Of a stretch of 64,000 nt of DNA, positions 10,281-58,789 are shown piece by piece. Position numbers and translations under genes: made by a program. How positions within the stretch are numbered: the stretch's first letter is position 1; the number at the start of each line of letters is the position of its first letter. The notes beneath the pieces are model-generated. The model worked only from the letters and a program-made list of their open reading frames with translations, searched no databases and had not been told where the DNA came from. This stretch comes from Patescibacteria group bacterium (lineage in GTDB: Bacteria; Patescibacteriota; Patescibacteriia; SBBC01; CAIJZX01), in assembly GCA_038065275.1 (NCBI GenBank), contig JBBTRH010000007.1, positions 2,873 through 66,872 of the forward strand, given 5' to 3'.

Positions 10281-10409
10281 GTGAAGCTCCGCCAGCAGGA
10301 GCTGGCGGCCTCACCGAGATGCGGTGCGGAGCGTAACCCCGCACCGGAGGCCGAGCGCACCATACTCCTCCACCGACAGAGTCGGTGGCCTCCTGGTGCG
10401 CGGGTAAAA
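10281..10409. repeat. GC-rich structured repeat, copy 2
   Basis: 129 nt identical to the copy-1 core. It lies in the rpsF upstream region. Confidence 0.75.
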
Positions 10410-13621: not shown

Positions 13622-13733
13622 AGTATTGTTCCTTCCGCCGCTCGTCTCCCCACGAATCGGGGGCAGTCGGGGCTTAATAACTATAGGTTAACCGAAGAAA
13701 TACCGAATGTCAAGACTGTCCCTGTGGATAACT

Positions 13734-13913
13734 ACCTCCCCGTAATAAGGTAACACCTTTTCATCCAATAATGCCTATCAAGTAAGTACCTGCACTAAAA
13801 ATCCTCATATCGCACCCCTCCTTGCGAAGGAGGGGTGTGTTGATGTACGTTGCTAGCGCTCATTTAAGATAAAGGGGGTAGAACATTGGGGCGATACTAT
13901 TTGACGGGGAGGT
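13734..13913. mobile_element. MITE-like element family (CCTCCCCCGTCAAATA TIR), copy A
   Basis: Terminal inverted repeats ACCTCCCCGTAATAA and TATTTGACGGGGAGGT. Internal hairpin CACCCCTCCTT-GCGA-AGGAGGGGTG. AT-rich and non-coding. Confidence 0.65.
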
Positions 13914-14003
13914 GGCGTCGATCGCACGTCTGGTGCGTGGGTAAGAACTTAGGGAAAAACGCCAACCGCCGCCCGTCGATCAAACCGGCGGCTTTCTATT
14001 GCC

Positions 14004-14702
14004 CTAACTATTCGTTGTGCTCGCCGGTGCCACAGCCGATTCGACAAGAATATTCCTGATTACCGTCCGCGGTCGGCTGTGTTTCTTAATGGCCGAAATT
14101 TTCAGCGCATTGAGTCCGATATGAAGGTCGATCGATTCATTAAACCGACCGTCACCGGAAGTCTGGACGTCCTGGTCGTTGATGGTCACCGTGGCGTTCG
14201 GGTCGGTCGTACCGCTGATGATCAAAGTCACGGCCGAGGTTGAAATATCCGTCGCCGGTTGCGTGACGGTCAACCGCGGGGGCAGGAAATTCCGCACAGC
14301 TTGGGTGCCGAGGTAGGTGACGGCTATGACCACGATGATGCCGGAGACGATGAAGCGAAGATGGCGCCGCACCCAGGGAAACTCCGTCGATGCTCGCGGG
14401 GTGAGGAGCGGCCGCGCGGTCGGTCCGGTCTTGGCCACCACGGCATATTCTTGCTCGAAGATCCCGACCGCCGTTTCCACGTCCGTCTCCAGCGCTTCCG
14501 CATACCGGCGGACGAACTGCCGAGCATAGACCAGCCCGGGCAAGTCACGATAACGCGATTCCTCGACGGCCGTGAGGTATTTCGAGGTGACGTGAATCCG
14601 CCGTCCGACGTCTTCAACTGACCATCCGGTTTCAGTCCGCAGGGCCCGTAGGCGGTCACCGAGCGTCGCCCCGGCCGTGAGCGGCCGCTTGGTGAACGTC
14701 AT
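14004..14702 (-). CDS. RodZ-like helix-turn-helix membrane protein
   Basis: N-terminal XRE-type HTH (LGDRLRALRTETGWSVEDVGRRIHVTSKYLTAVE), a single TM segment, then an extracytoplasmic domain. Confidence 0.6.
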   Translation of the reverse strand: MTFTKRPLTAGATLGDRLRALRTETGWSVEDVGRRIHVTSKYLTAVEESRYRDLPGLVYARQFVRRYAEALETDVETAVGIFEQEYAVVAKTGPTARPLLTPRASTEFPWVRRHLRFIVSGIIVVIAVTYLGTQAVRNFLPPRLTVTQPATDISTSAVTLIISGTTDPNATVTINDQDVQTSGDGRFNESIDLHIGLNALKISAIKKHSRPRTVIRNILVESAVAPASTTNS

Positions 14703-14775
14703 CCCGTTAGAGCGTTATATTGAAGCATTATTATTCTCATTACGGTCTGATCCGACGATGGCCGCTCTAACGGGA
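14703..14775. repeat. CCCGTTAGA hairpin element, copy 3
   Basis: CCCGTTAGAGCG (14703-14714) and CGCTCTAACGGGA (14763-14775). The element fills the whole 73-bp gap between the ftsK stop and the ATG of the RodZ-like gene. Confidence 0.75.
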
Positions 14776-17049
14776 TCATGCGCGGCCGGCCTCGTCCTCC
14801 CCGCCCCCGACCGGCGTCCGTTCATCGCTGGCTGGACTGTCATCAACGGGCAGGTCTCGCGGGTCGACCGGGATTCCATCCGCCGTGGCCGATACCTGAC
14901 CGGCATAGATTTCCCTAGGCTTGGCGCCGGAGCCGGGGCCGATGAATCCTTGTTGTTCAAGCAGATCCATGATGCGCGCCGCCCGGGCGTAACCGAGGCG
15001 AAGGCGGCGCTGGAGGAGAGTGGTCGAGGCTTTGCCGCTCTGGAGGATGACTTCTCTGGCTTGGGTCATCAGTTCGTCATCCCCGAGATCTTCCATGCTC
15101 CCGCTGATCATCGGCGCGGCTTTTTCGACGATGTCGTTCATATAATCCGGTCGGCCGCGTTGCTTAAGGAACTGGGTCACGCGTTCCACCTCTTTTTCCG
15201 AAACATAGGCGCCCTGCAAACGCTTCGGTTTGCTCAGCTCGGCCGAGACGAAGAGCATGTCTCCTTTGCCTAGCAATTTTTCGGCGCCAGAGGTGTCGAG
15301 AATCGTCCGCGAATCGATCTGCGAGGCGACGCTGAAGGCAATGCGGGCGGTGACGTTGGCCTTGATTAGGCCGGTGATAACATCGACTGACGGCCGTTGC
15401 GTGGCCAAGACGAGGTGGATGCCGACGGCTCGGGCCATTTGCGCCAACCGCACGATCGCGCCCTCGACTTCCTTGGCCGCGACCGACATCAAGTCAGCTA
15501 ACTCATCGATCACCACCACGATATAAGGCAGGTCGTCATTAATGTCTTTACGATAGGAGGCGATGTTGCGCTTGCCGGCGTTCTGGAATAACTGAAACCG
15601 GCGGTCCATTTCGCTGACCACCCAGCGCAGGGCGTTGATGGTCTTGATCGTGTCGGTAATGACCGGTGTTAAGAGGTGCGGGATGTCATTATACAACGAC
15701 AACTCGACTCGTTTTGGATCGACCAAGATGAGCTTCAAATCATCCGGCGAGTTGCTGTAGAGCAAACTCAGAATCAAACCGTTGATTTGCACCGATTTTC
15801 CCGAACCGGTCGCGCCGGCGATCAGCAGGTGCGGCAACGGATCGAGGTTGGCTACCCACGGTTGCCCGGACACGTCTTTGCCCAGTGAGAACGTCAAGTT
15901 CGACTTCCGGTTCTTAAAGTTGTCGGCTGTCAGGATATCGCGCAGATTGACCAGCGCCACGGCCTGATTCGGGACTTCAATGCCGACTAGGGACTTGCCG
16001 GGAATCGGCGCTTCAATGCGAATCGGGTGGGCGGCCAGGGCCAGGGCCAAGTCGTTGTATAGCGACGCGATCTGGGCTAAGCGTACTCCTTCCGACGGTT
16101 TGAGCGTGAACTGGGTGACCGTCGGGCCGACATTGACTTCGCCCATTTCGACCGCAATGCCGAAAGTTTCCAGCGTTTTGCGGATTTTTTCTTTATTCGC
16201 TTCAATGTTGCCGCTGGTCGGCTTGCCGGTCGATAGGTCCAGCAGGTCAAGCGGAATAGTGATCTGCCGCTTCTCTTTTTTCGCCGGTGCTGGCGGCCGG
16301 GGAGCGTCGGCTTCCTCCTCGTCCTCATCGCCGGCGCGATCATCGTCTGCCGGCGCATCAGCGATCGCTTGCTTCGTAAAACCCGGCGCGGCGTTTTCCG
16401 TTGCTTGCTCTTCATGGCCACCGGCATCCAGCGTTAATTTCCGGCGCCACCAGCGGTGACGGACCCAGGCCAAGAATTTCGCCGGCAGGTTCCCGCGATC
16501 GGCTAAGCCGCGCAGGGTCGTGTTGAACATGATCAACAGAGCGATAATAAACAATCCGGCCATGATCAGTCCGGCGGCCACCGCCCCGAACCCTTGGCGG
16601 AGCGGATAGTCCAATAACACGCCCAAGTATCCCCCGCCCTCACCGCCGATCGCCCGGCTGACCGACTCCGCCGCCGGCAGGAACAGTTGCAGGATGCCGG
16701 AGACGCTGATTACGGCTAAAACGAATCCGGCCCACTGGGTGGCGTTGATATGCAAACGCTCGGGAAACAGGAGCAGTGTCCCGACGACCGCTAGGTACAC
16801 CCAAATCACGTAGCGTTGCCAGCCCACCAATGTCCCCAACCCGCCGCTGATGGCGCTACCCAGACCGCTGGCGCCGTTGAAAACGCTCAACGCGCCAACC
16901 GCCGCCAGGATGAACAGCGCGACGATCGTGACGGCGCGGCGAGTTTCAGGAGTTAGCCTAGACCGCGGCGGTTCAGCCGAAACTGGGCGTCCGGATTGTT
17001 GATCGCCGTTGGCACGAGCGCGTCGCGCTGATCGTTTCGACTGAGCCAT
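14776..17049 (-). CDS. ftsK: DNA translocase FtsK
   Basis: N-terminal TM segments; FtsK/SpoIIIE motor with Walker A GATGSGKS; winged-helix C-terminus. Confidence 0.9.
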   Translation of the reverse strand: MAQSKRSARRARANGDQQSGRPVSAEPPRSRLTPETRRAVTIVALFILAAVGALSVFNGASGLGSAISGGLGTLVGWQRYVIWVYLAVVGTLLLFPERLHINATQWAGFVLAVISVSGILQLFLPAAESVSRAIGGEGGGYLGVLLDYPLRQGFGAVAAGLIMAGLFIIALLIMFNTTLRGLADRGNLPAKFLAWVRHRWWRRKLTLDAGGHEEQATENAAPGFTKQAIADAPADDDRAGDEDEEEADAPRPPAPAKKEKRQITIPLDLLDLSTGKPTSGNIEANKEKIRKTLETFGIAVEMGEVNVGPTVTQFTLKPSEGVRLAQIASLYNDLALALAAHPIRIEAPIPGKSLVGIEVPNQAVALVNLRDILTADNFKNRKSNLTFSLGKDVSGQPWVANLDPLPHLLIAGATGSGKSVQINGLILSLLYSNSPDDLKLILVDPKRVELSLYNDIPHLLTPVITDTIKTINALRWVVSEMDRRFQLFQNAGKRNIASYRKDINDDLPYIVVVIDELADLMSVAAKEVEGAIVRLAQMARAVGIHLVLATQRPSVDVITGLIKANVTARIAFSVASQIDSRTILDTSGAEKLLGKGDMLFVSAELSKPKRLQGAYVSEKEVERVTQFLKQRGRPDYMNDIVEKAAPMISGSMEDLGDDELMTQAREVILQSGKASTTLLQRRLRLGYARAARIMDLLEQQGFIGPGSGAKPREIYAGQVSATADGIPVDPRDLPVDDSPASDERTPVGGGEDEAGRA

Positions 17050-17130
17050 ATCCCGTTAGAAGCTATCTGAAAAAAAAGTGAATTGTTTGTTCATACGTGA
17101 TAAGCTTGTTATTACGGCTTCCAACGGGAC
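17050..17130. repeat. CCCGTTAGA hairpin element, copy 4
   Basis: CCCGTTAGAAGC (17052-17063) and GCTTCCAACGGG (17117-17128). It starts 1 bp upstream of the ftsK ATG. Confidence 0.7.
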
Positions 17131-17682
17131 ATGGAAGCGCTTAGGATAGCATAAAAATGGCCTTGCGGCAATCTGATTTGTAATCCTGACGCCCAGGCGA
17201 GGATAGAGTACGCTCGATACTATCCGGTGGCTGAGGAGAAGCTATGCCTCAACACGCCATCTTCACTACATACAGCACACGCTGGGGAGCATGCGCTGTG
17301 GGAAAAGGGGAGAGCTTGCGGAGCAAGAAAACTACTACCTCTTCAAACACCGTCGGCGCCCCCGCCGGCGGTCGCCGAAGAAGAATAAGTGTTACTCACT
17401 GTCAGCCCAAATTTTCCCGGGTCGTCCAATAGATTTAGCTTTCTAGGATCTCAAATTGTCCCTCTCTCAAAGCAAAAATGGGTAAATCCGCTTTATGCTT
17501 CTTCAATTTAGCATCTGCCTTACCCAATCAATGTTCGGCGCATTAATATTCACCCAAACTGTGTCGACCCGGCGTGAATGGGGTCGGCACAGTTTCTGTC
17601 TTTCGTACCCTCACCTGCCCCACTCCTCACCAGACCGCAACCATCCTCACCTATCCCGCCCTCGTGCGGAATGATGCGGTCT

Positions 17683-20600
17683 TTACGTCGCGGCGTTTTG
17701 GGCCGCTAGTTCATTCGCGGCGTTTTGGCGTTGATGAAGTTCGAATCCGGTCCCGGCCGGAATCGGTTTACCGATGATCACATTCTCCTTCAACCCGCGA
17801 AGCGGATCGATCTTACCCGAAACGGCGGCGTCGATTAAGACGCGGGCGGTTTCCTGGAATGAGGCGGCGGACAGCCAGCTTTCGGTGGTCAACGATGATT
17901 TCGTCACGCCGAGCAGGAGCGGTTCAATCTCCGGCGGCGACTTTTTTAGCCTGGCGATCAGCTCGTCGGCGACCGCCCGATCGACGATTTCCCCGACTAC
18001 TAGTTCAGTCCCGCCAGCCGACTTAACGTAGGCGCGGGAGAACATCTGGCGGACGATGATCTCGATGTGCTTGTCATTCAGGTATTGGCCCTGCGACGAA
18101 TAGATGAACTGGATTTCCTTGATGATGTATTTCTGCACCGCCTGACGGCCCTGGAGAACGTAGAGTTCCTGGAGATTAATCGATCCGTCGGTCAAGACGG
18201 CGCCGACATCCACCAGGTCGCCGTCGTTGACCCGCAAGATGGTATTGCCGGCCACGTCGAAGTCGGTCGTCGCTTGATGATCAAACTCGACGTAGGCCGC
18301 GGTAGGAGCGATCTTGACGATGCCGGCGCGTTTGGCCGTCACCGTCTTCTCGCCGATCGTCATCAGTAGCGCGCCGGCACTAACCCGAGCGCCGTCCTTG
18401 ACCTGGAGAACGGCTTTCACCTTGGCCCGCGCCTTCGGCAGGTCATAGCGGTCGTGGCCTGGCGCTTGATGGGCGAGCTTGATCACCCGGTGGTCGCCGC
18501 TGGAATCGATCTGTACTTGACCGGCCACGGTCGCTAACAGGGCCGGCGATTTCACCGGTCGGGCCTCGAACAACTCCTCGACCCGCGGCAAACCTTGAGT
18601 AATGTCATCACCACCGGCCACGCCGCCGGTATGGAACGTGCGCATGGTCAGCTGGGTGCCCGGTTCGCCGATTGATTGGGCAGCAATGATGCCAACGGCG
18701 GTGCCAATCTGCACCAGATCATTCCGGGCCAGGTCGTATCCGTAACAACGCTGGCAAACCCCCCGCACCGCTTTGCAGGACAGGACGGAGCGGATGGTGG
18801 CGGAGGTAAGGCGGGCCTTTTTTAGTTTGGCGACGATTTTCGGCGTCAACAGTTCGCCGTTCTTCACTAGCGTCTTCCCCTTCCCGTCGACCAGATCGGC
18901 CGCCAGCACCCGGCCGCTGATGCGGTGGATGATGTCGTAGCCCATCTCTTCGCTCTCGGCGGTGGTGATGGTGAACCCCTCAGTGTCGCCGCAGTCTTCC
19001 AGGTTGATCACCACATCCTGGGACACATCGACCAGCCGTCGCGTCAGATACCCGGCGTTAGCCGTCTTCAGCGCGGTGTCCGTTAGCCCTTTCCGCGCGC
19101 CGTGCGTGGAAATGAAGTATTCGAGCACATCGAACCCTTCCTTGAAACTGGCCTTGACCGGCAACTCGATAGTCTTCCCCGACGGGTTGCCGACCAACCC
19201 TTTCATGCCCATCATCTGGGTGGTTTGAGCCCACGATCCGCGCGCGCCGGAATTAATCATCATGTACACCGGGCCGAGCTTATTCAGCGTTTCTTTCGAA
19301 GCCGCTTGAATGTCTTCCTTAGCCGTCGTCCAGGTATTGATCACCCGGACATAGCGCTCGGTATCAGTCAGCAAACCGGCTTCGTAGGCTTCTTGAATTT
19401 CCCGGATGCGTTGTTCGGCGCGGGACAGAATGTCGGCTTTCTGGGCGGGGACTTCCAGGTCGCTCATGCCCCAGGAGATGCCGGACTGCGTGACGTATTT
19501 GAATCCGAAGTTCTTGACTGCGTCGAGCAGTTCAACCGTCCGCTCCTGGCCGAGCTCGACGAATGATCGTGAAACCAGCGCCGAGAGGGATTTCTTATCC
19601 ATGTTCTCGTTGATGAATCCGAGTTCCTTCGGCAAGATGCGGTTGAACAGAACGCGGCCGACCGTGGTGGCCATGCGTTCGCCCTCGATCCGGATAGTGA
19701 CCCGGGTCTGGAGGCCGATCCGGCCGGATTCGTAGGCTAGAATAGCCTCATCGGGGTGGGCAAAAGTGTAGTCTTTCTGGTCACCGGATTGAGTCATGTA
19801 GTAGCAACCCAAAACAATGTCCATGTTCGGCGTCATGACCGGCGTGCCGGTCGCCGGCTTGAGGAGGTTTTTCGTCGACATCATCAGGTTGGCCGCTTCC
19901 CACTTGGCCTGTTCGGTCAACGGCACGTGGACAGCCATCTGGTCGCCGTCGAAATCGGCATTAAAGGCACTGCAGACCAGCGGGTGGATCTGGATCGCCT
20001 TGCCTTCGATCAAAATGGGTTTGAAGGCTTGGATACCCAGGCGATGGAGGGTTGGGGCGCGGTTGAGGAGGACGGTCGCGCCCTTCGTCACCCCTTCCAA
20101 GATGTCCCAGACTTCGGGATGTCCGGCCTCAATGTACCGACCGGCGGAGCGGACGTTATGGACGTATTCGCGCTTGATCAACTCGGAGATGACGAACGGC
20201 CGAAAAAGTTCAAGGGCCATCCGTTTCGGCAGGCCGCACTGGTCGAGTCTGAGATACGGACCGATGACAATCACCGAACGGCCGGAGTAGTCGACCCGCT
20301 TGCCCAGGAGATTCTGACGGAACCGGCCTTGTTTGCCTTTCAGCATATCGGCGATTGAACGGAGCATCCGCTTTTGGCCGGTTGAGGCGGTGACCGTCTT
20401 GCCGTGACGGGCGCCGTTGTCGATCAAGGCGTCAACGGCTTCCTGTAGCATCCGTTTTTCGTTGCGGACGATGACTTCCGGAGCGTTAAGCTCAAGTAAT
20501 CGCTTCAGACGGTTATTCCGGTTAATGACCCGGCGGTACAGATCATTCAAGTCAGAGGTGGCGAACCGGCCGCCGTCGAGCTGGACCATCGGTCGGAGAT

Positions 20601-21552
20601 CGGGCGGGATGACCGGCATGACCGTCATGACCATCCACTCGGGCCGGATGCTGTTGGCTTTAAAATTCCTGGTCAGGCGCAGGCGGCGGATAATGCGGCG
20701 CTGTTTCGACTCGGTCGCTTTGGCCACCTCGTCTTCGAGTTGGGCGATCAATGCGTCGAGGTCGATGTTCGACAGCAGATGATGGATGCCTTCAGCGCCG
20801 ATCGAAGCCTCGAAAACATGGCCGTATTTCAGCGACAGGTCTTGGTAGGCTTGCTCCGTCAGGATTTGGAGCGGGGCTAAGTTGTTCAGTTCGCGCCGCG
20901 CCGTGGCCACCGCCTCGTCGAGGAGTTTCAGTTTCTCAATTTTGGCCAGGCTGAGATTCTGGCGGTCGGTCTCAATTTTGGATTTCGCTTTGGCGTCGGT
21001 CGTGCCGAGGATCTGCTGTTTCAACTGATTCGCTTGCTGTTGCCACTCGCCGTCGATCTGCTTCTTTTTCGAGCTGTATTCGCCGTCAAGCTGCTGGAGC
21101 GTTTCATGGCGCAGGTTCTCGTCAACCGCCGTAATGATGAAGTTGGCGAAGTAAATGACTTTCTCCAGGTCCTGGACGCCCAGGTCGAGCATCAGGCCGA
21201 TTTTCGACGGCACGCCGCGCAGGAACCAGATGTGGGACACCGGCGTGGCCAGGTTGATGTGGCCCATCCGTTCGCGCCGGACGACCGACCGGGTGACTTC
21301 GACGCCGCACTTGTCGCAAACGATGCCCTTGTAGCGGATGCGCTTGTACTTGCCGCAGAAACATTCCCAGTCTTTCGAGGGTCCGAAGATTTCTTCGGCG
21401 AACAGTCCGGATTTTTCCGGTTTCTGGGTGCGGTAGTTAATCGTCTCCGGCTTGGTGACTTCGCCGAATGACCAGCGGTGGACGTCTTCCGGCGACGCCA
21501 CTTTCAAGCGGATGGCTTTGAAGTCGACGGCGTGGGTTTCTTCGTAGGGCAT
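17683..21552 (-). CDS. rpoC: DNA-directed RNA polymerase subunit beta'
   Basis: [24 protein letters not shown]..., NADFDGD catalytic motif and zinc-finger cysteines. Start trimmed to Met19 of the tracked ORF by alignment to the conserved N-terminus. Confidence 0.95.
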
Positions 21553-21555
21553 ATG

Positions 21556-21615
21556 ATATATTGGGTAGCTCGTTAGCTGACAAGCTATAGAGCTAACTGC
21601 TAACAAGCTAAAAAG
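21556..21615. repeat. GTTAGC/GCTAAC-type repeat tract in the rpoB-rpoC spacer
   Basis: GGTAGCTCGTTAGCTGACAAGCTATAGAGCTAACTGCTAACAAGCTAAAAAGCTAG. Confidence 0.6.
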
Positions 21616-24600: not shown

Positions 24601-25077
24601 AATGATCTTGGCTCCGTAGTAGCGGCGGCCGCGGATGCTTTCGGCGGTAAAAAAGACGCCGGCTGAGCGGATCAGCTGGCTGACAACCACGCGTTCGATG
24701 CCGTTGACGATGAACGTCCCGCGATCGGTCATCAGCGGAAAGTCACCGAGGTAGATTTCTTGTTCCTTTATTTCGCCAGTCTTCTTGTTCACCAGGCGGA
24801 CCTGAACGCGCAACGCCGCTTCGTAGGTGACGTTCTTGGTCTTAGCCGTCACCTCGTCGAACTTCGGTTCGTCGAGGTAATAATCAAGGAAGGACAGCTC
24901 CAGGTCGCGGCCGATGAAGTCGCGCACCGGCGAGATCTCGGCAAACAGCTCCTTCAGTCCGTCGCGGAAGAACCAGTCGTAGCTTCGTTGCTGGATTTCG
25001 ATCAGGTTCGGCAACGACGTCGCTTCGTGCAACGTCGTGAAGTACTTCCGCTCGGCCACTGTCGCTTGGTCAGACAT
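21616..25077 (-). CDS. rpoB: DNA-directed RNA polymerase subunit beta
   Basis: 1153 aa with canonical rpoB blocks; immediately upstream of rpoC. Confidence 0.95.
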
Positions 25078-25282
25078 GAAGAAAATACCCCATCCTCTCC
25101 TGGGCCGGAGAGTGGTTACGATTGCTCAGATTCCGCCCCGCACCAAGGGACGGCGGGCGCTCAAAGGCGCCGAGTATACGCTCAAAATATGGCTCAAAAT
25201 ACGCTAACTGATAATAACAACATTGTGCGTCCCTGTCAAGGATAAATGTGATAGGTTGTCAATACACAAATATTTAGCTAAT

Positions 25283-25394
25283 GTTAGCCCCGTTAGAGGT
25301 GATAGCGAAAACAAGGTGGAGATTAGTTGTCGTTATCCACAGCAATGTGGCGTATTAAAAAAAGTAATTACATTCGCCTCTAACGGGGTTAGCC
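25283..25394. repeat. CCCGTTAGA hairpin element, copy 5
   Basis: GTTAGCCCCGTTAGAGG (25283-25299) and CCTCTAACGGGGTTAGCC (25377-25394). A candidate promoter TTGTCA-N17-TAATGT (25256-25284) abuts its left arm. Confidence 0.7.
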
Positions 25395-25598
25395 ATCCTT
25401 TTTCGTCATGGTGTACAGCAACAAAAAACTATCCCCAATTATATCCAGAAGGTATCCACAGGAGGTAATTTCATAAATACACCTAATAATAACCGGCGAA
25501 AGTTGGTCCTGAGGAGCTATCGCTGGGGCACACCAATGGAGGCGGTGATCAGCGCCTCCCCATTGCCGACCCCCATTTCAATGCGTTAAGGTGTAGAC

Positions 25599-27002
25599 AT
25601 GGCTAATCAACTCTTCACTCCCGATTTGGCCCACTGGGTTTTTTCCCAAGCCTGGTTCCCTAAAGAACAAGAGTCGGCCTGGCACGAGCTCTGGTCGCCG
25701 GAACTATGGCCGGAGAATGATCGTCCGACCGATGAGACGCTGGAGATTTTTTTGAACCAGTGGATCATCTATGACCGGCCCACGTCGACGCACCATCGCA
25801 CGCCGCTTGAATTGTTCATCGATGCCAAGGTCAAACAGCGGCCGGTCGAGCGATCGGTGTTTGAAGGTTTCAAACGAAGTTGGGTCGGCGCGTTCGGCCT
25901 TGAGGCCATTCAGCCGCTCCAATCTATGCTCCTGCTCGACCTAGCCAGCGGGCGCCGATTCGAAGTTCAGGAACAGCAGGGCACCGTCGGCCCCCAAGTC
26001 GGCGACGTGCTGTTAGCCCGGATCCTCCCCTTCGGGCAGACCTTTCTCATCGGCGCCTCGTACGGGTTAGTCCAACAACCGGAGGCCGTGGCCATGCGGT
26101 ACACTTGGGATCGTTTGCGGCGGGACGGGCCGCTCCCGCCGTTAACCGCGCCGCAGTTGGCCCCGTTTATCATTCAACCGACGCCGGCCCTCCGGAAGTG
26201 GCAACTGATCGTCGAGTTGGATGATTTTTTGCGGGCGAAAAAGTACGCCGCTCAATCGGCGACGGCCATCGTCCGCGAGTTTGAGCGGCTCGACGATCCT
26301 AACGGGGTTCTCCGTCGCTTGCTGAACGAGGTGCCGCTGAAAACAACGGCCGAAGTAAACACCCTGTCGAGGCTCATCATCGAACTGTGGAACGCCTTTC
26401 AAGCGAAGGTTCCGCGGCGCGGCGAACCGGGTGCCGGCCCGATCGAAACGGCCATCATCCACGATCTGCTAACCAAGATGCAAGTTGAACAACCGACGTC
26501 CCACCTGAACGATTCCGACCAGGCGAAACGTTTCGGCGAGGAATGGTACCAACGCTACCTGCATCTCCCCCAGGCCGAGTTGCACGGACGCACGCCATGG
26601 CAGATGATCCTCGCCGAGCGGCAGGAGCGGGGCAATCCGGATACGGGCTGGCATTACGAATTCTCGGCCCAGCCCGTACCCAACCCGGCGGTCGCGAAAT
26701 TTCAACGATTGCTCGACAACGCCGTGGCGGCCCATCAAGACAAAAAATTCGGCCCCGCGCTCCGCCAGTACAAAAAATTATTATCCTACGGCGACGACCA
26801 GGTACCGGAAATCTGGCGGATCTACGGGAACGCCGGCGCTTGTGCCTGCGAACTCAACGACTTTGACGCGGCGGAAGAGTATTTCAAAAAAGCGCTTCGC
26901 CTCAATCCAAACTACAGTTTGGCTAAGAAAAATTTACGGCGGCTAAAGAAATTTCGCGCCTCGGGGCAACAGCCGCCGGGCGCTAACCGCCCAACCGCTT
27001 GA
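25599..27002 (+). CDS. Hypothetical protein with C-terminal TPR-like repeats
   Basis: 467 aa. The C-terminal region (…YKKLLSYGDD…AEEYFKKALRLNPNYSLAKKNL) looks like TPR. No catalytic motif recognised. Confidence 0.55.
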   Translation: MANQLFTPDLAHWVFSQAWFPKEQESAWHELWSPELWPENDRPTDETLEIFLNQWIIYDRPTSTHHRTPLELFIDAKVKQRPVERSVFEGFKRSWVGAFGLEAIQPLQSMLLLDLASGRRFEVQEQQGTVGPQVGDVLLARILPFGQTFLIGASYGLVQQPEAVAMRYTWDRLRRDGPLPPLTAPQLAPFIIQPTPALRKWQLIVELDDFLRAKKYAAQSATAIVREFERLDDPNGVLRRLLNEVPLKTTAEVNTLSRLIIELWNAFQAKVPRRGEPGAGPIETAIIHDLLTKMQVEQPTSHLNDSDQAKRFGEEWYQRYLHLPQAELHGRTPWQMILAERQERGNPDTGWHYEFSAQPVPNPAVAKFQRLLDNAVAAHQDKKFGPALRQYKKLLSYGDDQVPEIWRIYGNAGACACELNDFDAAEEYFKKALRLNPNYSLAKKNLRRLKKFRASGQQPPGANRPTA

Positions 27003-27133
27003 CACCCTGGTCGACGTCGAATACTATACCTTCAAGGTAAGTCGGTGGCGGAAAGTATGCGCCTCTATGTTAAAGAGCGCGGTGTTCGAGCGTGTTTGCC
27101 GTCCCATAAGCCTTCGCCGATTTCCATGATCCC

Positions 27134-28939
27134 ATGCGCGCCATCCTAAAAAAACATTTCGGGTACGAGGAATTTCGGCCCTTGCAAGCTGATATTATCA
27201 CTCATGTCCTGGCCCGGCGCGATGCGTTAGTCTTGATGCCGACCGGCGGAGGTAAGTCGCTGTGTTTTCAATTGCCGGCCCTAATGTCTGCGGGAATGAC
27301 CATCGTCGTTTCGCCGCTCATCTCGCTGATGAAAGATCAGGTCGACGCATTGCGAGCGAACGGCATCGCCGCCGCCCAGATCAACAGCGCCGTTGAGGGC
27401 GCCGCCATCGGCGAGATCAAACGACAAGCCGAGTCGGGACGGATAAAATTATTATATGTCGCGCCGGAACGATTAGCGATCCCGTCATTTCGGGCCTGGC
27501 TTAAAACTCTCGCTGTCTCGCTCATCGCGATTGACGAGGCGCATTGTATTTCCGAATGGGGCCACGATTTTCGACCGGATTATCGTACCTTGTGCACGCT
27601 CCGGCCGTATTTCCCCGGCGTATCGGTGTTGGCTCTGACCGCCACCGCAACCGACCGCGTGCGGCGGGACATAATCAAGCAATTGCGCCTCAGCCAACCG
27701 CGGATATTCGTGTCCAGTTTCAATCGCCCCAACCTGACCTACACCGTGCGGCCAAAGCGCAACGCCTTCCCAGTGTTGGTCGATTTACTGCGCCAAGACC
27801 CCCACGCCAGCGCGATCATTTATTGTTTTTCCCGCACCGGCACGGAAAAACTGGCTGACAAACTTAGGCGGCAGGGTTTTGTAGCCGAAGCCTACCACGC
27901 CGGTTTAGACAGCGAGACCCGCCGCCAGACGCAAGAACGGTTTATCCGCGATGAAACGCGGATCATCGTCGCCACCATTGCTTTCGGGATGGGGATTGAT
28001 AAACCGGATGTACGGTTGGTCATCCATTATGACCTGCCTAAATCCGTCGAAAATTACTATCAAGAGACCGGCCGCGCTGGACGCGACGGGTTGCCGAGCC
28101 AGTGTTTTCTTTTCTGGTCGTACGGCGACGTGATGAAGCATCGTTTTTTCATTCGAGAAATTGAGAATCCAGCCGAGCAACAGCGGGTCGAGGAAAAATT
28201 ACAGCAGATGGTACAGTATTGCGAACAACGGTCGTGCCGCCGACAATTCTTGCTGAACTATTTCGGAGAACAGTGGACGGCGGACGATTGTCGGGGCTGT
28301 GACATTTGTTTACCGTCAGTAGCGCCGGATGTAGCATCAATGCCGGCCCCGACCTTCGATCGCGAACTCTTTGAACAACTGCGGCAACTGCGCACTATGC
28401 TGGCCGACCAGCGCCGCGTGCCGCCCTTCGTCATTTTCGGCGACCGCAGTTTGCAGGAAATGGCGACCTATTATCCGCAAAACCTCGCCAGTTTCGCCCG
28501 CCTTTATGGCGTCGGCCAACGCAAAATCACCGACTTCGGCCCGCAATTTGTCCAGCTGATCCGCCGCCACGCCGCCGATAAAAACCTCAAAGAACTGGCC
28601 CGTCCGATTTGGCGCGAACGTGAAGCCGCCGACACGGATATTGTTAGCGCCACGTACGAGGAAACTAAGGCCCTGGTCAAACAAAAACTTTCCATCGCCG
28701 AGATAGCCAAGCGGCGCGGTTTAGTAACCGGCACTATAATGGGGCATCTCGAAAAAATTCACCGGATCGACCCGGCGCTCAACCTGGATTACCTGCGGCC
28801 GGAATCGACGCGCCTGGCAAAGATAACAGCCGCTTTCAAAAAAACTGGCGGCATGAGTTTGTCGCCGGTGCGTGAAATCCTGGGCGAGGAATATTCTTAT
28901 GACGAGTTGCGGTTGGCGAGGATGTTTGTGCGGTCGTAA
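27134..28939 (+). CDS. recQ: ATP-dependent DNA helicase RecQ
   Basis: Helicase motifs (LVLMPTGGGKSLCFQLPAL, DEAH-box region, RQC zinc cysteines, C-terminal HRDC). Confidence 0.9.
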   Translation: MRAILKKHFGYEEFRPLQADIITHVLARRDALVLMPTGGGKSLCFQLPALMSAGMTIVVSPLISLMKDQVDALRANGIAAAQINSAVEGAAIGEIKRQAESGRIKLLYVAPERLAIPSFRAWLKTLAVSLIAIDEAHCISEWGHDFRPDYRTLCTLRPYFPGVSVLALTATATDRVRRDIIKQLRLSQPRIFVSSFNRPNLTYTVRPKRNAFPVLVDLLRQDPHASAIIYCFSRTGTEKLADKLRRQGFVAEAYHAGLDSETRRQTQERFIRDETRIIVATIAFGMGIDKPDVRLVIHYDLPKSVENYYQETGRAGRDGLPSQCFLFWSYGDVMKHRFFIREIENPAEQQRVEEKLQQMVQYCEQRSCRRQFLLNYFGEQWTADDCRGCDICLPSVAPDVASMPAPTFDRELFEQLRQLRTMLADQRRVPPFVIFGDRSLQEMATYYPQNLASFARLYGVGQRKITDFGPQFVQLIRRHAADKNLKELARPIWREREAADTDIVSATYEETKALVKQKLSIAEIAKRRGLVTGTIMGHLEKIHRIDPALNLDYLRPESTRLAKITAAFKKTGGMSLSPVREILGEEYSYDELRLARMFVRS

Positions 28940-28961
28940 AGCCCTGGGGGATTCATCGTCG

Positions 28962-29142
28962 ACCTCCCCCGTCAAATAATAATGACAACCTTTGTTACAC
29001 AGAATAAACTACGCAATTAACAAAATCGTTGCCCCCCAACGCACCCCTCCTTCGTAAGGAGGGGTGTTTAAGACAAAACCGAAGACGTTTTTAACGATGC
29101 TGGTAATAGAAAGCACGAATGTTACTATTTGACGGGGGAGGT
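28962..29142. mobile_element. MITE-like element, copy B
   Basis: TIRs ACCTCCCCCGTCAAATA and TATTTGACGGGGGAGGT. Internal hairpin CGCACCCCTCCTTCGTAAGGAGGGGTG. It sits exactly between the recQ stop and the NUDIX gene stop. Confidence 0.7.
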
Positions 29143-29681
29143 CAACGTCGCACTTCCAGAACCCCTAATGCCATCAACCCCCGATACGCCGTTTCGCCGT
29201 CGGTCATTTTTCCTTCGGCCAGCATTGTGAAAAACGTTTTCATTGACACGGTTACGACTTCGATGGCTTCGTATTCGTCATTCTTCGGTTTTTGCGCCGC
29301 TTTCGCATTGGTGAATAAAAAATGGTGGCGCCAGCCGTCTGACCATCCATCATTAGATGTTCTGCCTAATGAGCGGCTATGTCCACGATATCCGGTTTCT
29401 TCAAGAACTTCACGAATCACCGCTTGCCTCGGTGTCTCGCGGCGGTCGATCCTTCCGCCTGGAAGTTCAAACATTACTCGTTCGACGCCGGGGCGGAATT
29501 GTTTCGCAATCACTACCTTGTTGTCAGGCGTAATAACCAGAGCGCAAACAATGTTCGGCCTATTGATTGTATAAAAGTCTCCCACTGCGCCATTCGGCAA
29601 CCGGAAACGCTTTTTTCGAAGTGACCGGAAGCGATTGATTTTGATAACGCGGTCGCTGATTTTTTCCCAGGCCAATCTCAT
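29142..29681 (-). CDS. NUDIX hydrolase
   Basis: Nudix box …RQAVIREVLEETGY…. Confidence 0.8.
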   Translation of the reverse strand: MRLAWEKISDRVIKINRFRSLRKKRFRLPNGAVGDFYTINRPNIVCALVITPDNKVVIAKQFRPGVERVMFELPGGRIDRRETPRQAVIREVLEETGYRGHSRSLGRTSNDGWSDGWRHHFLFTNAKAAQKPKNDEYEAIEVVTVSMKTFFTMLAEGKMTDGETAYRGLMALGVLEVRR

Positions 29682-31003
29682 GACCCGTTTGACAGCATCT
29701 TCCGCACCGTCTCGACATCACTCCACTCCATTTTCTGTCCCCTGACCATCATCGACGTCTCCGAACCCATGCCGGTAATTGCAATCACATCCCCCGGTTG
29801 AGCGAGTTTTATCGCGTGATGTATGGCTTCTTTGCGATCCAGGATAATTTCCGCCTTCCCCTGTTGATCAACGGGCAGACCGTCATAAATCGTAGCGCAA
29901 ATCTGTTGCGGATCTTCATCATACGGGTCGTCCGTAGTTAAAATAATCTTGGCACAGTATCGCGCGGCAATCTTCCCCAGTTCCGGGCGTTTCCAGGCGT
30001 CCCGTCCGCCGCCGGCCGCACCGAAGACAGCAATGATGCGCTTCGCACCGTCTGATTTCAGCGATTGATAGAATTGTTCAAGCGCGGCGGGTGTCAGCGC
30101 ATAATCAACCACTACTCGCCACGGTCGGCCGGTGGCTATTTCTTCGCTTCTTCCCGGCACCGCCTGTGCGCTAGCCAGCCCCTTAACGATCGCTTCCCAC
30201 TCCAGCCCCAAGGCGCGGCCGACGGCGATGGCTTGCAACGCGTTACGGACATTGTATTCGCCGGACAACGGTAGCGTGAAATCGCGGCCGTCAACGGTGA
30301 ACATCATCCCGTCCGCCGTCGGCCGCGCGCCGCTCCCCGCAATGACCGTCATTTTCCCTTCGGCATCCGCTATCGTTCGGTGATGACTTAACGTTGTTCC
30401 ATAGTGCTTTTCGGCCCAAAATTTCAGGTAATAGTCGTGTGACGCATCGTCGAGATTAACGACGGTGACTTTGGGAATGGCGGCGCCAAACAAGTGCTTG
30501 TCGCCGCTACGGATAATCGAGGTGAAGAGCAGGCCTTTAGCTTGCCGATAGGCTTCGAACGAACCGTGTGTCTTGATGTGCTCGGGCGTAAGATTGGTGA
30601 TCACCGCCACGTCGAAGTCGACGTCGGTATGGCGGTACTGAACCAGCCCTTCCGACGACGCCTCAACGACCGCGTAGCGACAGCCAGCCTGGACCATTCG
30701 TCGCAGGAGCCGCTGTAGTTGAAACGGGTCGGGCATGGTCAGGTGCGATTCGTTGAGCCAGCGCTGTTCGCCAATCTGAAACACCGCCGACGTCGACAAC
30801 CCGACCGGCGCGCCGCTCGCGCCGAGCACATCGGCGATCAGCGACGCCGTAGTGGTTTTGCCGTCAGTCCCGGTCACGCCAACCACAATTATATGGCGCG
30901 ACGGCCGTCCGTACCGCCAGCCAGCCAGAAGCGCCAGCAAGTGATGGTACTGCCGGCGGATAGTCGGCGGAGCTAGGCGCTTTAGTGTTCCCAGCGCGGG
31001 CAT
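29678..31003 (-). CDS. Mur ligase family protein (MurE-like UDP-MurNAc-tripeptide synthetase)
   Basis: VVGVTGTDGKTTT ATP-binding motif and the C-terminal TTDDPYDEDP (DNPR-EDP-like) motif. It overlaps the NUDIX gene by 4 bp. Confidence 0.75.
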   Translation of the reverse strand: MPALGTLKRLAPPTIRRQYHHLLALLAGWRYGRPSRHIIVVGVTGTDGKTTTASLIADVLGASGAPVGLSTSAVFQIGEQRWLNESHLTMPDPFQLQRLLRRMVQAGCRYAVVEASSEGLVQYRHTDVDFDVAVITNLTPEHIKTHGSFEAYRQAKGLLFTSIIRSGDKHLFGAAIPKVTVVNLDDASHDYYLKFWAEKHYGTTLSHHRTIADAEGKMTVIAGSGARPTADGMMFTVDGRDFTLPLSGEYNVRNALQAIAVGRALGLEWEAIVKGLASAQAVPGRSEEIATGRPWRVVVDYALTPAALEQFYQSLKSDGAKRIIAVFGAAGGGRDAWKRPELGKIAARYCAKIILTTDDPYDEDPQQICATIYDGLPVDQQGKAEIILDRKEAIHHAIKLAQPGDVIAITGMGSETSMMVRGQKMEWSDVETVRKMLSNGS

Positions 31004-31008
31004 AGGAA

Positions 31009-31263
31009 TTAAGCGAACGATTCCGGGGTCAACTCCTGATCGTCGCTCAAGCGCACCGTGAACGAAAAATCCTTGTTACGCACGAGATCGTAACGCCGGC
31101 CCTGGAAAATTAATGTGGTGATGCCGTAACGCTTGGCCGTGTAGAACAATCCTTCGACCACGTCGTGATCGGCATTCTTGAGGTAGACGATGGCGTCTTT
31201 ATCTCCCTCAACTTGGTGGACGTTGATCAGCTCGCGGCGCGGTTTATCATTCGGCAACGGCAT
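31009..31263 (-). CDS. Small hypothetical protein, paralog 4 of 4
   Basis: 84 aa (LINVHQVEGDKDAIVYLKNADHDVVEGLFYTAKRYG...). Confidence 0.55.
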   Translation of the reverse strand: MPLPNDKPRRELINVHQVEGDKDAIVYLKNADHDVVEGLFYTAKRYGITTLIFQGRRYDLVRNKDFSFTVRLSDDQELTPESFA

Positions 31264-31312
31264 AGGTCGCTAGTCTAGCAAACATGGCGTCGCCTGGCCA
31301 GCGCGGGGATTA

Positions 31313-31552
31313 TCAGATCACCAGGTCGTCGTCCGCGGCGATAATCGTGTAACTGTTGTCGCGATCATGATTAATAACATACGCTGTACCGCGAACATGA
31401 AACGTACTCTGTCCGCGCCGCTTGGCTCGGTAGAGAAGCTCTTCCGTCCGCAGGTGACTGCCCTCCTTGAGGTAATCTATGGCGTCCTGATCGCCGTGGA
31501 GACGATGGACGACGATGTATTCTTCGTCAGTCTGGCGGTAGGGTTTTTTCAT
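31313..31552 (-). CDS. Small hypothetical protein, paralog 3 of 4
   Basis: 79 aa (YIVVHRLHGDQDAIDYLKEGSH...), clearly similar to paralog 4. Confidence 0.55.
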   Translation of the reverse strand: MKKPYRQTDEEYIVVHRLHGDQDAIDYLKEGSHLRTEELLYRAKRRGQSTFHVRGTAYVINHDRDNSYTIIAADDDLVI

Positions 31553-31554
31553 GC

Positions 31555-31785
31555 TTAGAGAATCCCCTGGACGAACGAGCCCGGCTCAAGCGTGAAAGTG
31601 TGGTCGGGATGGCGGCGAAGGATGCGTTCCTGTCCGTCGAGAATGAGGCGGGATTGCCCATGTTCCTGGGCCTCAGCGAACAGTCGGTTAAGGTAGGCGG
31701 CCGATTGCCGGCGGAGAATTAGGGCCAGCTCCGGATCGCCGATGACGATGTGCCCCTGAATGTTCGTGCGTTTAAAACCAGCCAT
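31555..31785 (-). CDS. Small hypothetical protein, paralog 2 of 4
   Basis: 76 aa; overlaps the previous ORF by 14 bp; same pattern. Confidence 0.5.
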   Translation of the reverse strand: MAGFKRTNIQGHIVIGDPELALILRRQSAAYLNRLFAEAQEHGQSRLILDGQERILRRHPDHTFTLEPGSFVQGIL

Positions 31786-32017
31786 GGGAGACGTTGGTCG
31801 CTACGACGACGAATGCGCCGTTTTCGCCGTCTACCAAGCTGAACTTGCGGTGGTCCTCGTCCTCGAAGGCGACTTCTTTTTGTGCCTCAACTTGCTTGAA
31901 CAACTCCAGCGCCTCGTCTTGGCTGAGTTTGTAGGCTAGATGCTTAACCCCGAAAAACGACCGCTCGTCGTCGCAGGTGACGCGATGACCGTGGACGGTC
32001 AGCTGGTGGTTGCTCAT
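31772..32017 (-). CDS. Small hypothetical protein, paralog 1 of 4
   Basis: 81 aa, first gene of an overlapping four-gene array, sharing the pattern hVH..G...A..YLK....L....EL...A...G...F. Confidence 0.5.
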   Translation of the reverse strand: MSNHQLTVHGHRVTCDDERSFFGVKHLAYKLSQDEALELFKQVEAQKEVAFEDEDHRKFSLVDGENGAFVVVATNVSHGWF

Positions 32018-32080
32018 ATGGATCGTATGAGATGATGAAGCCTACCGCCATCGTAGCACTATCGCAAAAAAATGCCAGTT

Positions 32081-32219
32081 AAAAAGGAGAGACACACTGG
32101 TGAGAGTGTGTCGTGGTAAGTAGGGGGGTTGATTGAGGTGGCCGTGGGGCGAAGGTTTTTTGGGAGCTTGGTGCTTCCGGAAACCATTTCGCTCGAGAGC
32201 TACCTCATTTCCTACTTAC
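32081..32219 (-). ncRNA. Candidate small structured RNA (~139 nt), class unknown
   Basis: A near-consensus sigma70 promoter lies just upstream on the minus strand. The transcript begins GUAAGUAGG, and a 9-bp terminal helix GUAAGUAGG/CCUACUUAC encloses the body. It ends with GACACACU-CUCACC-AGUGUGUC plus UCUCCUUUUU. No convincing ORF. Confidence 0.5.
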
Positions 32220-32225
32220 AGCTGA

Positions 32226-32254
32226 ATTATAGACCTATACGGTTTCTACGTCAA
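32226..32254 (-). promoter_or_regulatory. Sigma70-type promoter TTGACG-N17-TATAAT for the candidate sRNA
   Basis: On the minus strand, TTGACG (32254-32249), a 17-nt spacer, then TATAAT (32231-32226). Confidence 0.55.
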
Positions 32255-32316
32255 GAGGTATTTTTCTTAGGAAAAACCAGGTGTTTTCTACCGCCGTGTA
32301 TCCAAAAAAAGGTTAT

Positions 32317-32346
32317 CCACAAAAAGACCTCGGAATTTCTTCCGAG
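32317..32346 (-). terminator. Intrinsic terminator of the exonuclease gene
   Basis: Minus strand: CCTCGGAA-GAAA-TTCCGAGG followed by TCTTTTTGT. Confidence 0.65.
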
Positions 32347-32358
32347 GCGCAAGCACTA

Positions 32359-32964
32359 TCATGCCGATTGACGACGGGCGTTCAACCGGGCGTCGATCTG
32401 AACTTCGTATCGAGCGCCGGCCAGCCCGCGGTGCGGTTTGGCTTCTTCACCCAGTCCGAGGTACGCGCCGACGGACGAGAGTGACAACTTGGTGATGCGG
32501 CCGGCCAGGAAATCCGGCCGCAGGGCTTCGCTGGCCTTGGTCATCAGGCAGTGCCAGTGGTAGTCGCCCCGCCATTCCCGACCGTAGCGGTAGAAATAGT
32601 CGGCCAGCCAGCGGAACTCGAAGCTGACGTTATACGCCCAGGGCACACATCCGGCGCAGAACGCGTTGAGCTGATCAAGCGCCTGCTCCGCCAGAATCGC
32701 GTCAACCCACTCGGCGAAGGTGAAACCGTTGTAGCGATGGTACGACAGCTCCTCTTCCGACCTGCCGAACGGATTGGCGACCCCGAACATGAGGTTGAGT
32801 TCGGCCAGCGCGTCGCCGCTGACCGGATCGACTTTCACCAGTCCGGCTTCACAGACCTCGCCCCCTTCGGCCAGGCTGTCGCCGGTGGTTTCCAGATCAA
32901 TAAAGACCCTTGGCAAAGCGATGAAATCGGCCGTGCCGCTGACACGGTTGGGGCGCATACTCAT
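32359..32964 (-). CDS. DEDDh-family 3'-5' exonuclease (DnaQ-like)
   Basis: Exo I motif VFIDLETTG. The C-terminal H-x4-D-like region is HRGLAGARYE. Confidence 0.75.
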   Translation of the reverse strand: MSMRPNRVSGTADFIALPRVFIDLETTGDSLAEGGEVCEAGLVKVDPVSGDALAELNLMFGVANPFGRSEEELSYHRYNGFTFAEWVDAILAEQALDQLNAFCAGCVPWAYNVSFEFRWLADYFYRYGREWRGDYHWHCLMTKASEALRPDFLAGRITKLSLSSVGAYLGLGEEAKPHRGLAGARYEVQIDARLNARRQSA

Positions 32965-33063
32965 TTATGTGCCTCCCTGTGAAAGATCAAACCCAAAAAG
33001 CATGGCTGGACAATACTCTATCTTTAGCAGAAGTCAAGCGCGTGTGTAAGACACCGTCGCCCT

Positions 33064-33250
33064 ACCTCCCCCGTCAAATAGTAACATTCGTACTTTCTAA
33101 TGCCATCATCTATACAAAACGTTTTTGGTTTTATCATAAACCCCCCTCCTCCCGCGCGGGCGGGAGGAGGGGTGCGTTTGGGGCAACGATTTCGCTAAAT
33201 GTGTAATTTATTTTGTAATTCAGACAATCAGTAACATTTGACGAGGGGGG
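33064..33250. mobile_element. MITE-like element, copy C (inverted relative to copy B)
   Basis: TIRs ACCTCCCCCGTCAAATA (33064-33080) and CATTTGACGAGGGGGG (33235-33250). Its interior is the reverse complement of copy B: GTAACATTCGTACTTTCTAATGCCATCATC versus GATGCTGGTAATAGAAAGCACGAATGTTAC, and the GGGAGGAGGGGTGCGTTTGGGGCAACGATTTCG block. Confidence 0.7.
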
Positions 33251-33254
33251 CGGG

Positions 33255-58785: not shown

Positions 58786-58789
58786 GTCA

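Follow-up and report, generated by a model that had tools for sequence, protein, structure and literature searches.

A family of small inverted-repeat elements in groundwater Patescibacteria

Three related sequences of about 190 bp, here named copies A, B and C, were found in a 64,000-nt stretch of DNA from a Patescibacteria group bacterium (assembly GCA_038065275.1, contig JBBTRH010000007.1, positions 2,873–66,872; hereafter 'the window'). They are probably small non-autonomous mobile elements similar to miniature inverted-repeat transposable elements (MITEs), and members of a family specific to a groundwater lineage of the Patescibacteria. The features shared with MITEs are a short non-coding sequence, the presence of terminal inverted repeats (TIRs), the dispersal of the copies, and differences in presence or absence between genomes; a cognate insertion sequence (IS) was not found. 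An earlier inspection of the window, referred to below as the sequence-only reading, had described the copies as 'MITE-like', and the term sets the claim at the right level: no matching transposase was detected, a candidate target-site duplication (TSD) was seen at copy B only, and the copies are old. The family is new; the element type, for the most part that of a bacterial MITE of the Correia/ERIC/RUP kind, is already well known. A search of the literature on MITEs in Patescibacteria, or in the candidate phyla radiation (CPR), found nothing relevant.

The three copies are present where the sequence-only reading placed them, and their TIRs and hairpins recur far beyond what chance yields in shuffled sequences. 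Copy B (28962–29142, − strand) has perfect 17-bp TIRs (28962–28978 and 29126–29142), contained in an inverted repeat that spans 26 nt at 92% identity (28957–28982 versus 29122–29147). Copy C (33061–33254, + strand) has an intact left TIR (33061–33083, CCTACCTCCCCCGTCAAATAGTA) and a degenerate right TIR (33235–33254, CATTTGACGAGGGGGGCGGG). Copy A has its core at 13734–13913 and matched the family profile over positions 13723–13925 (− strand; nhmmer, E = 2.5e-39), although this orientation rests on a weak alignment of the interior. Its left TIR (13732–13749, + strand, CTACCTCCCCGTAATAAG, with four C rather than five) is more decayed, with the end reading ACCTCCCCGTAATAAG, than the right one (13896–13913, + strand, ACTATTTGACGGGGAGGT, with four G rather than five), CCCC replacing CCCCC at both ends. 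Of the six ends, only three match the 17-mer of the sequence-only reading exactly: the two of B and the left one of C. When the 17-mer ACCTCCCCCGTCAAATA was searched for with up to three mismatches, the window contained three matches (28962, 29126 on the − strand, and 33064), all of them at the copies; 0.11 were expected from shuffling, and none of 100 shuffles reached three. A relaxed pattern composed of the TIR, 50–75 nt and CCCCTCCT matched all three copies (four hits versus 0.00 expected), and the hairpin CCCCTCCT-N(2–20)-AGGAGGGG was found at four positions (13815, 29044, 33143 and 55475; 0.00 expected).

The central hairpin of copy A (13813–13837) is a perfect 11-bp stem, CACCCCTCCTT-GCG-AAGGAGGGGTG, and copy B contains the same stem with a different loop (29042–29066, CACCCCTCCTT-CGT-AAGGAGGGGTG). 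The exact hairpin thought to be common to the three copies is hence shared by A and B, while C carries a longer form with a 13-bp stem (33143–33172, CCCCTCCTCCCGC-GCGG-GCGGGAGGAGGGG). The consensus TIR, (CCT)ACCTCCCCCGTCAAATAGTA, covers ~17–23 bp and is longer than the 17-mer; the consensus has at its middle a perfect palindrome rich in GC, CACCCCTCCT(C/T)..(A/G)AGGAGGGGTG. Full elements are 187–197 bp long (225 bp in the member of locus L071, which contains an insert), well below the ~500 bp that bounds a MITE, with a GC content of 44–50% versus 56% for the host. Copies B and C, which the sequence-only reading had noticed to be reverse complements across their interiors, are so over their whole length. 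Their arms match at 87% over 55 nt and at 84% over 37 nt, and in opposite orientation they are about 71–77% identical, the whole gapped alignment giving 71%. Copy A belongs with them by its ends and its hairpin, the only parts held in common; overall it is just 48–51% identical to B and C. The elements have no coding capacity, as had been stated. The one 'ORF' string that they have in common, PLLPRARGRRG, comes from translation of the hairpin and lacks a conserved start codon, and the possibility of a coding sequence was rejected after reading the open reading frames (ORFs) at the loci.

Exact protein matches identified the carrier of the window as the Patescibacteria metagenome-assembled genome (MAG) GCA_964359265.1, from groundwater of the Hainich aquifer, and were also found in ERZ1292631, ERZ1292638 and ERZ1292640. 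When metagenomes were scanned for the combination of TIR and hairpin, the hits included the Hainich versions of A and C, together with four further members at unrelated loci of a second groundwater metagenome, OBEQ01 (GCA_900206355.1/PRJEB22302), which was the source of loci L061, L065, L068, L071, L109 and L113. These members are those of L061, L065, L068 (a part of L109) and L071. The rodZ ortholog in L109 is 69% identical to that of the window, which indicates that the OBEQ01 carrier is a related Patescibacterium. In total, the family occupies seven distinct loci in two related groundwater lineages. The L065 member lies at the 3′-end of a GtrA gene, that of L071 at the 3′-end of a cupin gene, and that of L068 1.1 kb from the rodZ ortholog.

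In a full-length alignment of the seven members, the left TIR averaged 86% pairwise identity, the hairpin stem 93% and the two interiors 52–54%. The TIRs of the L065 member are perfect over 21 nt; in the other copies apart from B one end is decayed, and the L071 member has lost one end and contains a 50-nt nested insertion in the hairpin loop. Pairwise identities across the family range from 39 to 77%: they reach 76–77% among L061, L065 and L068 and 71% between B and C, versus 59–67% between the lineages. This clustering by lineage fits an amplification within each lineage after their split. The strains also differ in the right TIR of copy C, which in a contig from Hainich H43 (L072, 636–652, GACGAGGGAGGC) is nearer to the consensus than it is in the window (33236–33252, GACGAGGGGGGCG).

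The family profile recovered all members with nhmmer E-values of 1e-39 to 1e-60, and found no further member in ~235 kb of newly fetched loci (~130 kb from relatives, the rest from chance viral hits). An exact-TIR scan of 185,579 species genomes gave 29 single hits, scattered among unrelated taxa, with no hairpin nearby and attributable to chance; the source species evidently lies outside that collection. The same scan of IMG/VR viral contigs gave ten single hits, to which the family profile aligned weakly (E = 0.01–0.06) and in the TIR columns only. BLAST against plasmids yielded no match. Most of the 51 hits of the metagenome scan corresponded to one conserved 72-nt stretch of a human gut organism and to a 96-nt group; neither fits the family profile, and they were discarded.

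Occupied and unoccupied sites

The loci used for comparison were L084, L105, L113 and a 97.6-kb contig from a relative (ERZ1426827, P0042), plus L106 (contig 9 of GCA_964359265.1, CAYHSG010000009.1) and L107 (an ENA contig), which belong to the window's own MAG. The sites of A, B and C are all unoccupied in syntenic relatives. In L113, recQ and the NUDIX gene are convergent, as in the window, with a 27-nt overlap of their 3′-ends; the window has 202 nt between the two genes, nearly all of it copy B. At the site of copy C, the genes for the NTP_transferase and the exonuclease are 5 nt apart in the 97.6-kb contig versus 290 nt in the window, a comparison based on gene coordinates only. At the site of copy A, the rodZ–recA spacer measures 154 nt in L084, which lacks the element, versus 382 nt in the window; the recA promoter (TTGACA...) and 5′-UTR of the two align at high identity, and the alignment ends near the element boundary.

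The L071 locus provides the reverse case, which is also the sharpest. Its cupin ends as IHAEK|TSPVK*, the final five codons and the stop being the TIR read in frame (ACC TCC CCC GTC AAA TAA). DNA homology to L105 and L106 breaks off precisely where ACCTCC begins and returns where the next gene starts; a deletion has removed the other end of the element along with ~110 nt of host sequence. The cupin orthologs are intact in L105 and L106, where they run on as EPANAGG... and EPSHH..., respectively. The GtrA homolog of L065 also ends in PTSPVK*, so that at gene ends the TIR supplies the frame ACC TCC CCC GTC AAA TAG/TAA (TSPVK*). With this junction lying exactly at a TIR, and with the three unoccupied sites, the insertion-type, mobile origin proposed for the elements is supported. 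The sequence-only reading had itself named what would speak against such an origin, namely that only its own copies existed, with anciently diverged flanks and no signs of insertion; four more members, and insertion signatures, were found instead.

A TSD had been proposed as a check, and copy B shows a candidate. When its boundaries are set at ACCTCC/GGAGGT, an 8-bp direct repeat matching at 7/8 positions abuts the TIR ends with zero offset (left, 28954–28961, CATCGTCG; right, 29143–29150, CAACGTCG; both + strand). The chance of at least 7/8 matches at a fixed position is ~4e-4, or 0.011 per copy when 25 boundary offsets are allowed. Removal of the element plus one copy of the repeat leaves 13 nt between the two stops and preserves the same NUDIX end (LEVRR, TGA), the reconstructed unoccupied site being recQ...GGGGGATT-CAWCGTCG-CACTTCC...NUDIX. 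The other copies gave nothing convincing: copy C has a 6/8 flanking repeat only if its boundaries are shifted. There is no TA duplication, copy B being flanked as ...CGTCG|ACCTCC...GGAGGT|CAACG; the TA in CCTACC/GGTAGG belongs to the inverted repeat, and copy B has GA/TC instead. No conserved target motif or other short TSD was found in the flanks. The sequence CGTCG lies near five of the six ends in the window; it was rejected as a target motif, as it is common in this genome (~5.8 per kb, both strands counted), does not occur at the copies of OBEQ01 and in part reflects the duplication of copy B.

Folding of the element

Every copy can fold with its ends paired as a stem of ~22–30 bp and with the central hairpin formed, the minimum free energy as RNA being −62 to −97 kcal/mol. 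Copy B reached −47 kcal/mol as single-stranded DNA (ssDNA; z = −9.0), and copy A as RNA had a z-score of −3.0. The consensus fold comprises a 24-bp closing helix and the central helix; 89% of its alignment cells are paired, a share that falls to 47–54% if the partners are shifted against each other. In seven pairs both bases vary, and of 500 shuffles only one reached the covariation score. Two of these pairs lie in the hairpin (C-G/T-A at the base of the stem, and CCAC..GTGG versus CCGC..GCGG in the inner stem). The other five are the outermost ones: the terminal bases are copy-specific yet complementary (CGTTGA/TCGACG in B, GCA/TGC in L061, CCGG/CCGG in L068). These tips could correspond to subfamily-specific TIR tips, to insertion into a palindromic target, or to a foldback intermediate.

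Possible mechanism and alternative explanations

If the copies are mobile elements, a transposase encoded elsewhere would recognise the TIRs and move them. Insertion of copy B would have left the 8-bp duplication, and most copies would by now be old and decaying. The elements are seen to land at or inside the last codons of genes, with the TIR then providing the TSPVK* end. A transcript reading through an element might fold into the long TIR–TIR stem plus the central hairpin, and might act secondarily as a terminator, as a hairpin at an RNA 3′-end or as a target for RNase III between genes that lie close together.

Several observations weigh against a mobile origin. Neither the window nor the fetched loci contained an autonomous element or a transposase bearing these TIRs, and none lay at the exact-TIR hits (29 genomic and ten viral), the source genome being outside the scanned collection; the sequence-only reading had suggested looking elsewhere in the genome for a transposase with matching TIRs, and the loci and collections scanned yielded none. 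In particular, no DDE transposase with matching ends was seen in the window or in the fetched loci. The comparators that lack the element are all distant (55–72% protein identity), so that, except at the L071 junction, an 'unoccupied' site cannot be told from one that lost its element long ago. No copies are near-identical, hence there is no sign of current activity, and the comparisons show lineage-specific presence rather than recent movement. A TSD is convincing at copy B only, and one 7/8 match across six copies with 25 offsets has a chance of ~6%; the flanks of A, L061, L065 and L068 show no duplication above random expectation, even though the TIRs of L065 are as perfect as those of B. 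Finally, three copies were counted in the 64 kb of the window and none in a further 20 kb of its MAG.

It is possible, if unlikely, that the element is instead a REPIN-like foldback, an ssDNA moved in trans and without a TSD by the domesticated, single-copy RAYT of the lineage, that is, by a Y1/HUH transposase of the class associated with repetitive extragenic palindromic (REP) sequences. L071 encodes a Y1_Tnp/RAYT protein 285 nt from its element (Pfam, E = 2e-12). An ortholog 52% identical to it, P0089, also assigned to Pfam Y1_Tnp, is encoded in the window's own MAG (L106), both element-bearing lineages thus having a RAYT. The gyrB...RAYT–cupin synteny is kept in L071, L105 and L106/L107, this RAYT thus being single-copy and vertically inherited, as RAYTs are. 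Distant relatives of the protein carry the annotation of Pseudomonas REP-associated tyrosine transposases. The lack of a TSD at most copies, the pairing of the conserved ends as a long stem with covarying outer pairs, and a GTAG inside the GGTAGG termini of C, L061, L065 and L068 (absent from B) are compatible with such an enzyme. However, there is no family copy within 10 kb of the RAYT in L105, L106 or L107, and no profile match in L105–L108. In L071 the cupin gene stands between the element and the RAYT; since that site is unoccupied in L105 and L106, the adjacency amounts to one insertion among seven loci. The hairpins that precede the RAYT genes are of another type: their stems vary, their TTTCCA/TGGAAA loop is conserved, and they are absent from the 64-kb window. 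In addition, the TIR arm is not itself palindromic, unlike a REP unit, and the candidate 8-bp TSD of copy B would not be produced by HUH transposition. We therefore give little credence to the idea that the family is the first REPIN-like system of the Patescibacteria, a ~190-nt ssDNA foldback handled by the RAYT, with its termini and CCCCTCC hairpin as the recognition structures.

A slightly less probable explanation is that the sequences form a host cis module, a bidirectional terminator/insulator or a cassette for RNA processing that selection retains where genes are tightly packed, its ends and hairpin being conserved for their role in the transcript. The conservation of the hairpin and the left end relative to the interiors, even in the divergent copy A, and the compensatory changes in the hairpin would be expected of it. 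The CCCCTCC/GGAGGGG stem also stands alone after stop codons (once in the window, at 55474–55497, and twice in L084), and its motif is present in 4 of the 11 perfect hairpins of the window with stems of at least 9 bp. Further, no terminator-like site of the region on the strand of the upstream gene ranks above the hairpin of copy C, read on the − strand (13 pairs, tail GGTTTATGAT), and sigma-70-type promoters lie 7–23 nt outside the element at A, C and L068 (TTGACA at A and L068). The promoter-like site just beyond copy C is TTGACT-16-TATTGT, for the exonuclease gene (33037–33010, − strand); that at A is older than the element, since it is conserved in L084. But the hairpins of A and B fail the terminator scan and lack a proper U-tract, neither terminator-like nor promoter-like sites are more frequent than in shuffled sequences, and relative to the upstream gene the orientations are split, three versus three. 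A role as terminator, insulator or RNase III target is thus plausible as a secondary consequence only. Nor are the sites common to the related lineages, relatives lacking the element at all three loci, and the truncated or replaced C-termini of the cupin and the GtrA homolog look like insertion damage, not design; a function in the transcript would also leave unexplained how ~190 bp of related sequence arrived at unrelated loci. Outward hybrid promoters starting from the TTGACG of the TIR were considered and rejected, no end having a −10 box at the right spacing. It is very improbable that the sequences are genes for small structured RNAs of ~190 nt, with the 'TIRs' as the closing stem. Such genes would account for the stable consensus fold and for folding z-scores of −3 to −9, yet both strands fold equally well, as predicted by the symmetry of a palindrome at the DNA level. 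The interiors are poorly conserved and rich in indels, the L071 member has a loop insertion and a lost end, and copies overlap the 3′-ends of coding sequences. The elements contain no conserved promoter or terminator and have mixed orientations relative to their neighbours. Rfam gave no match to them at the gathering score or with a meaningful E-value, the only hit in the window being a tRNA, and a permissive scan of copy B returned only sub-threshold noise.

The hairpins with a TTTCCA loop have 9–10-bp stems of differing sequence and were located at 9724–9749, 9809–9834 and 9920–9943 in L107, at 9913–9938 in L105, and at 467–492 in L071. They cluster just upstream of the RAYT gene, one of them directly before its −35 box; another lies inside the RAYT ORF of L071. 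They may be REP-like partners of the RAYT, or its operators. In L106, this hairpin-rich region upstream of the RAYT contains a scaffold gap (a run of N at 9780–9789), across which the ENA contig L107 reads.

Relation to known bacterial repeats

The Correia elements of Neisseria (CREE or NEMIS) are 100–160 bp long and have TIRs of ~20–26 bp; the TIR–TIR stem of their transcripts is cut by RNase III, and they can terminate or stabilise mRNAs. They duplicate a TA target, are present as hundreds of near-identical copies, and contain an IHF site and outward promoters. The Patescibacteria elements resemble them in being short and non-coding, in having TIRs that pair as a stem, in lying beside gene ends, and in the absence of a transposase of their own. 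They differ in lacking a TA duplication (copy B is flanked as G|A...T|C), in being few and only 39–77% identical, in possessing a conserved central GC palindrome, and in having no outward hybrid promoter on reading the flanks.

ERIC (or IRU) sequences of enterobacteria and RUP of Streptococcus pneumoniae are MITE-like imperfect palindromes of ~100–130 bp that can alter the fate of an mRNA. RUP duplicates a TA and has a known partner IS, of the IS630-Spn1 type; ERIC is not known outside Proteobacteria. The elements described here are likewise imperfect palindromes, scattered through transcribed intergenic DNA and variably present at orthologous sites of related genomes; they have other ends, are longer, and occur in Patescibacteria. 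With REP sequences and REPINs they share an extragenic foldback form, conserved inverted ends around a less conserved spacer, the lack of a TSD in most cases, and a single-copy, syntenic RAYT. REPs, in contrast, are palindromes of 20–40 nt that normally flank the RAYT gene, while here the arms are non-palindromic and the RAYT locus of the window's own MAG is without a family copy. The palindromic elements of Rickettsia (RPE) enter genes in frame, and translation continues across them. The present family is similar in that a palindromic repeat enters coding sequence, the TIR encoding the TSPVK* end of the cupin and of the GtrA homolog; unlike RPE, it brings a stop codon and truncates the 3′-end of the gene.

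The genomes of Patescibacteria (CPR) are small and densely packed with genes, and mobile DNA is usually said to be scarce in them. That mobile elements do shape these genomes is shown by a repeat family inserted at gene ends, which has rewritten C-termini; where it sits, two genes that are 5 nt apart in a relative stand 290 nt apart. The family might also be used as a marker for tracking strains in aquifer time series. Its present value is that of a useful annotation and holds no surprise; only the unexplained complementary tips and the possible link to the RAYT could add more. If true, that link would explain the copy-specific tips and a slow amplification within each lineage, and would extend the REPIN–RAYT relationship well beyond the Proteobacteria.

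Genomic context of copies A, B and C

Pfam assignments of the neighbouring genes agreed with the gene-end contexts proposed for the three copies, although the sequence-only reading had listed the pairs of neighbours in an order other than that of the copies. Copy A lies between a gene for a RodZ-like HTH_25 protein (14004–14702, − strand), with its stop at 14004, and recA (12527–13621, − strand), with the recA promoter and start (13621) on the other side. Copy B lies between the convergent genes recQ (27134–28939, + strand; stop at 28939) and NUDIX (29142–29681, − strand), its terminus having one base, an A, in common with the TGA stop of the latter (29142–29144). Copy C lies between two genes on the same strand, those for the NTP_transferase (33255–33959, −) and an RNase_T-type exonuclease (32359–32964, −), and its decayed right end abuts the TAG stop of the former (33255–33257).

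The recA leader next to copy A is conserved at ~85–90% between the window (13622–13733, − strand) and L084 (5470–5580), the RodZ proteins being just 70% identical. Its 5′-UTR contains a hairpin, CCCCGACTG.CCCCGATT.GTGGGG. The conservation of the promoter and 5′-UTR suggests a possible regulated leader.

Solo hairpins and other repeats

The fourth hairpin of the window had been taken for a TIR-less fragment of the element, located at about 55468–55500. This was not supported. The hairpin (55474–55497, ACCCCTCCT-TAGTCG-AGGAGGGGT) has no TIRs, overlaps the stop of a 924-aa ORF (55482–58256, − strand) and resembles the family in its stem only (nhmmer E = 0.009, in hairpin columns only). In L084, where the profile found no family copy, similar solo hairpins, ACCCCTCC..GGAGGGG, stand 22 and 12 nt past stop codons (hairpins at 2293–2316 and 10132–10155). 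The solo hairpins of L084 and of the window lack a U-tract, and their stem pairs a Shine–Dalgarno-like AGGAGG with an anti-Shine–Dalgarno-like CCTCCT. That at 55474–55497 is probably an independent gene-end hairpin typical of the lineage. Either the element carries such a hairpin, or the solo hairpins are what remains after the loss of the arms.

A pair of sequences similar to the TIR was noticed in an intergenic region of a Thermoflexales MAG (L011, JAUQXC010000912.1, 1590–1645). The two, CCTCCCCTGTCGAAT and ATTTGACGGGGGAGG, are inverted and separated by a 12-nt spacer; they match the end of copy B over at least 21 nt, and no transposase is adjacent. They could be due to chance, or be what is left of a related element in a different phylum.

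The window also contains other repeats. Two intergenic sequences on the + strand (5898–6044 and 10296–10409) are 100% identical over 37 + 84 nt, the first having a 33-nt insert. One follows folD and the other lies between a UPF0020 methyltransferase gene and rpsF. Both have a strong structure, with folding energies of −56 and −62 kcal/mol over 114 nt; they had no match in Rfam and were not found in the loci of relatives. A diversity-generating retroelement was considered for this pair and rejected, there being no reverse transcriptase nearby. Arrays of the CCTACAAC type, with a period of 14 nt, occupy positions 58280–58438 and 58782–58859, with an inverted partner at 58280–58319, in an AT-richer stretch beside the start of the 924-aa ORF. 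In addition, positions 48563–48682 form a perfect tandem duplication of a 60-nt unit, and a 124-nt direct repeat of 85% identity (42176–42299 and 43472–43595) is present in a stretch of lower GC content at 38–44 kb, the two copies being 1.3 kb apart.

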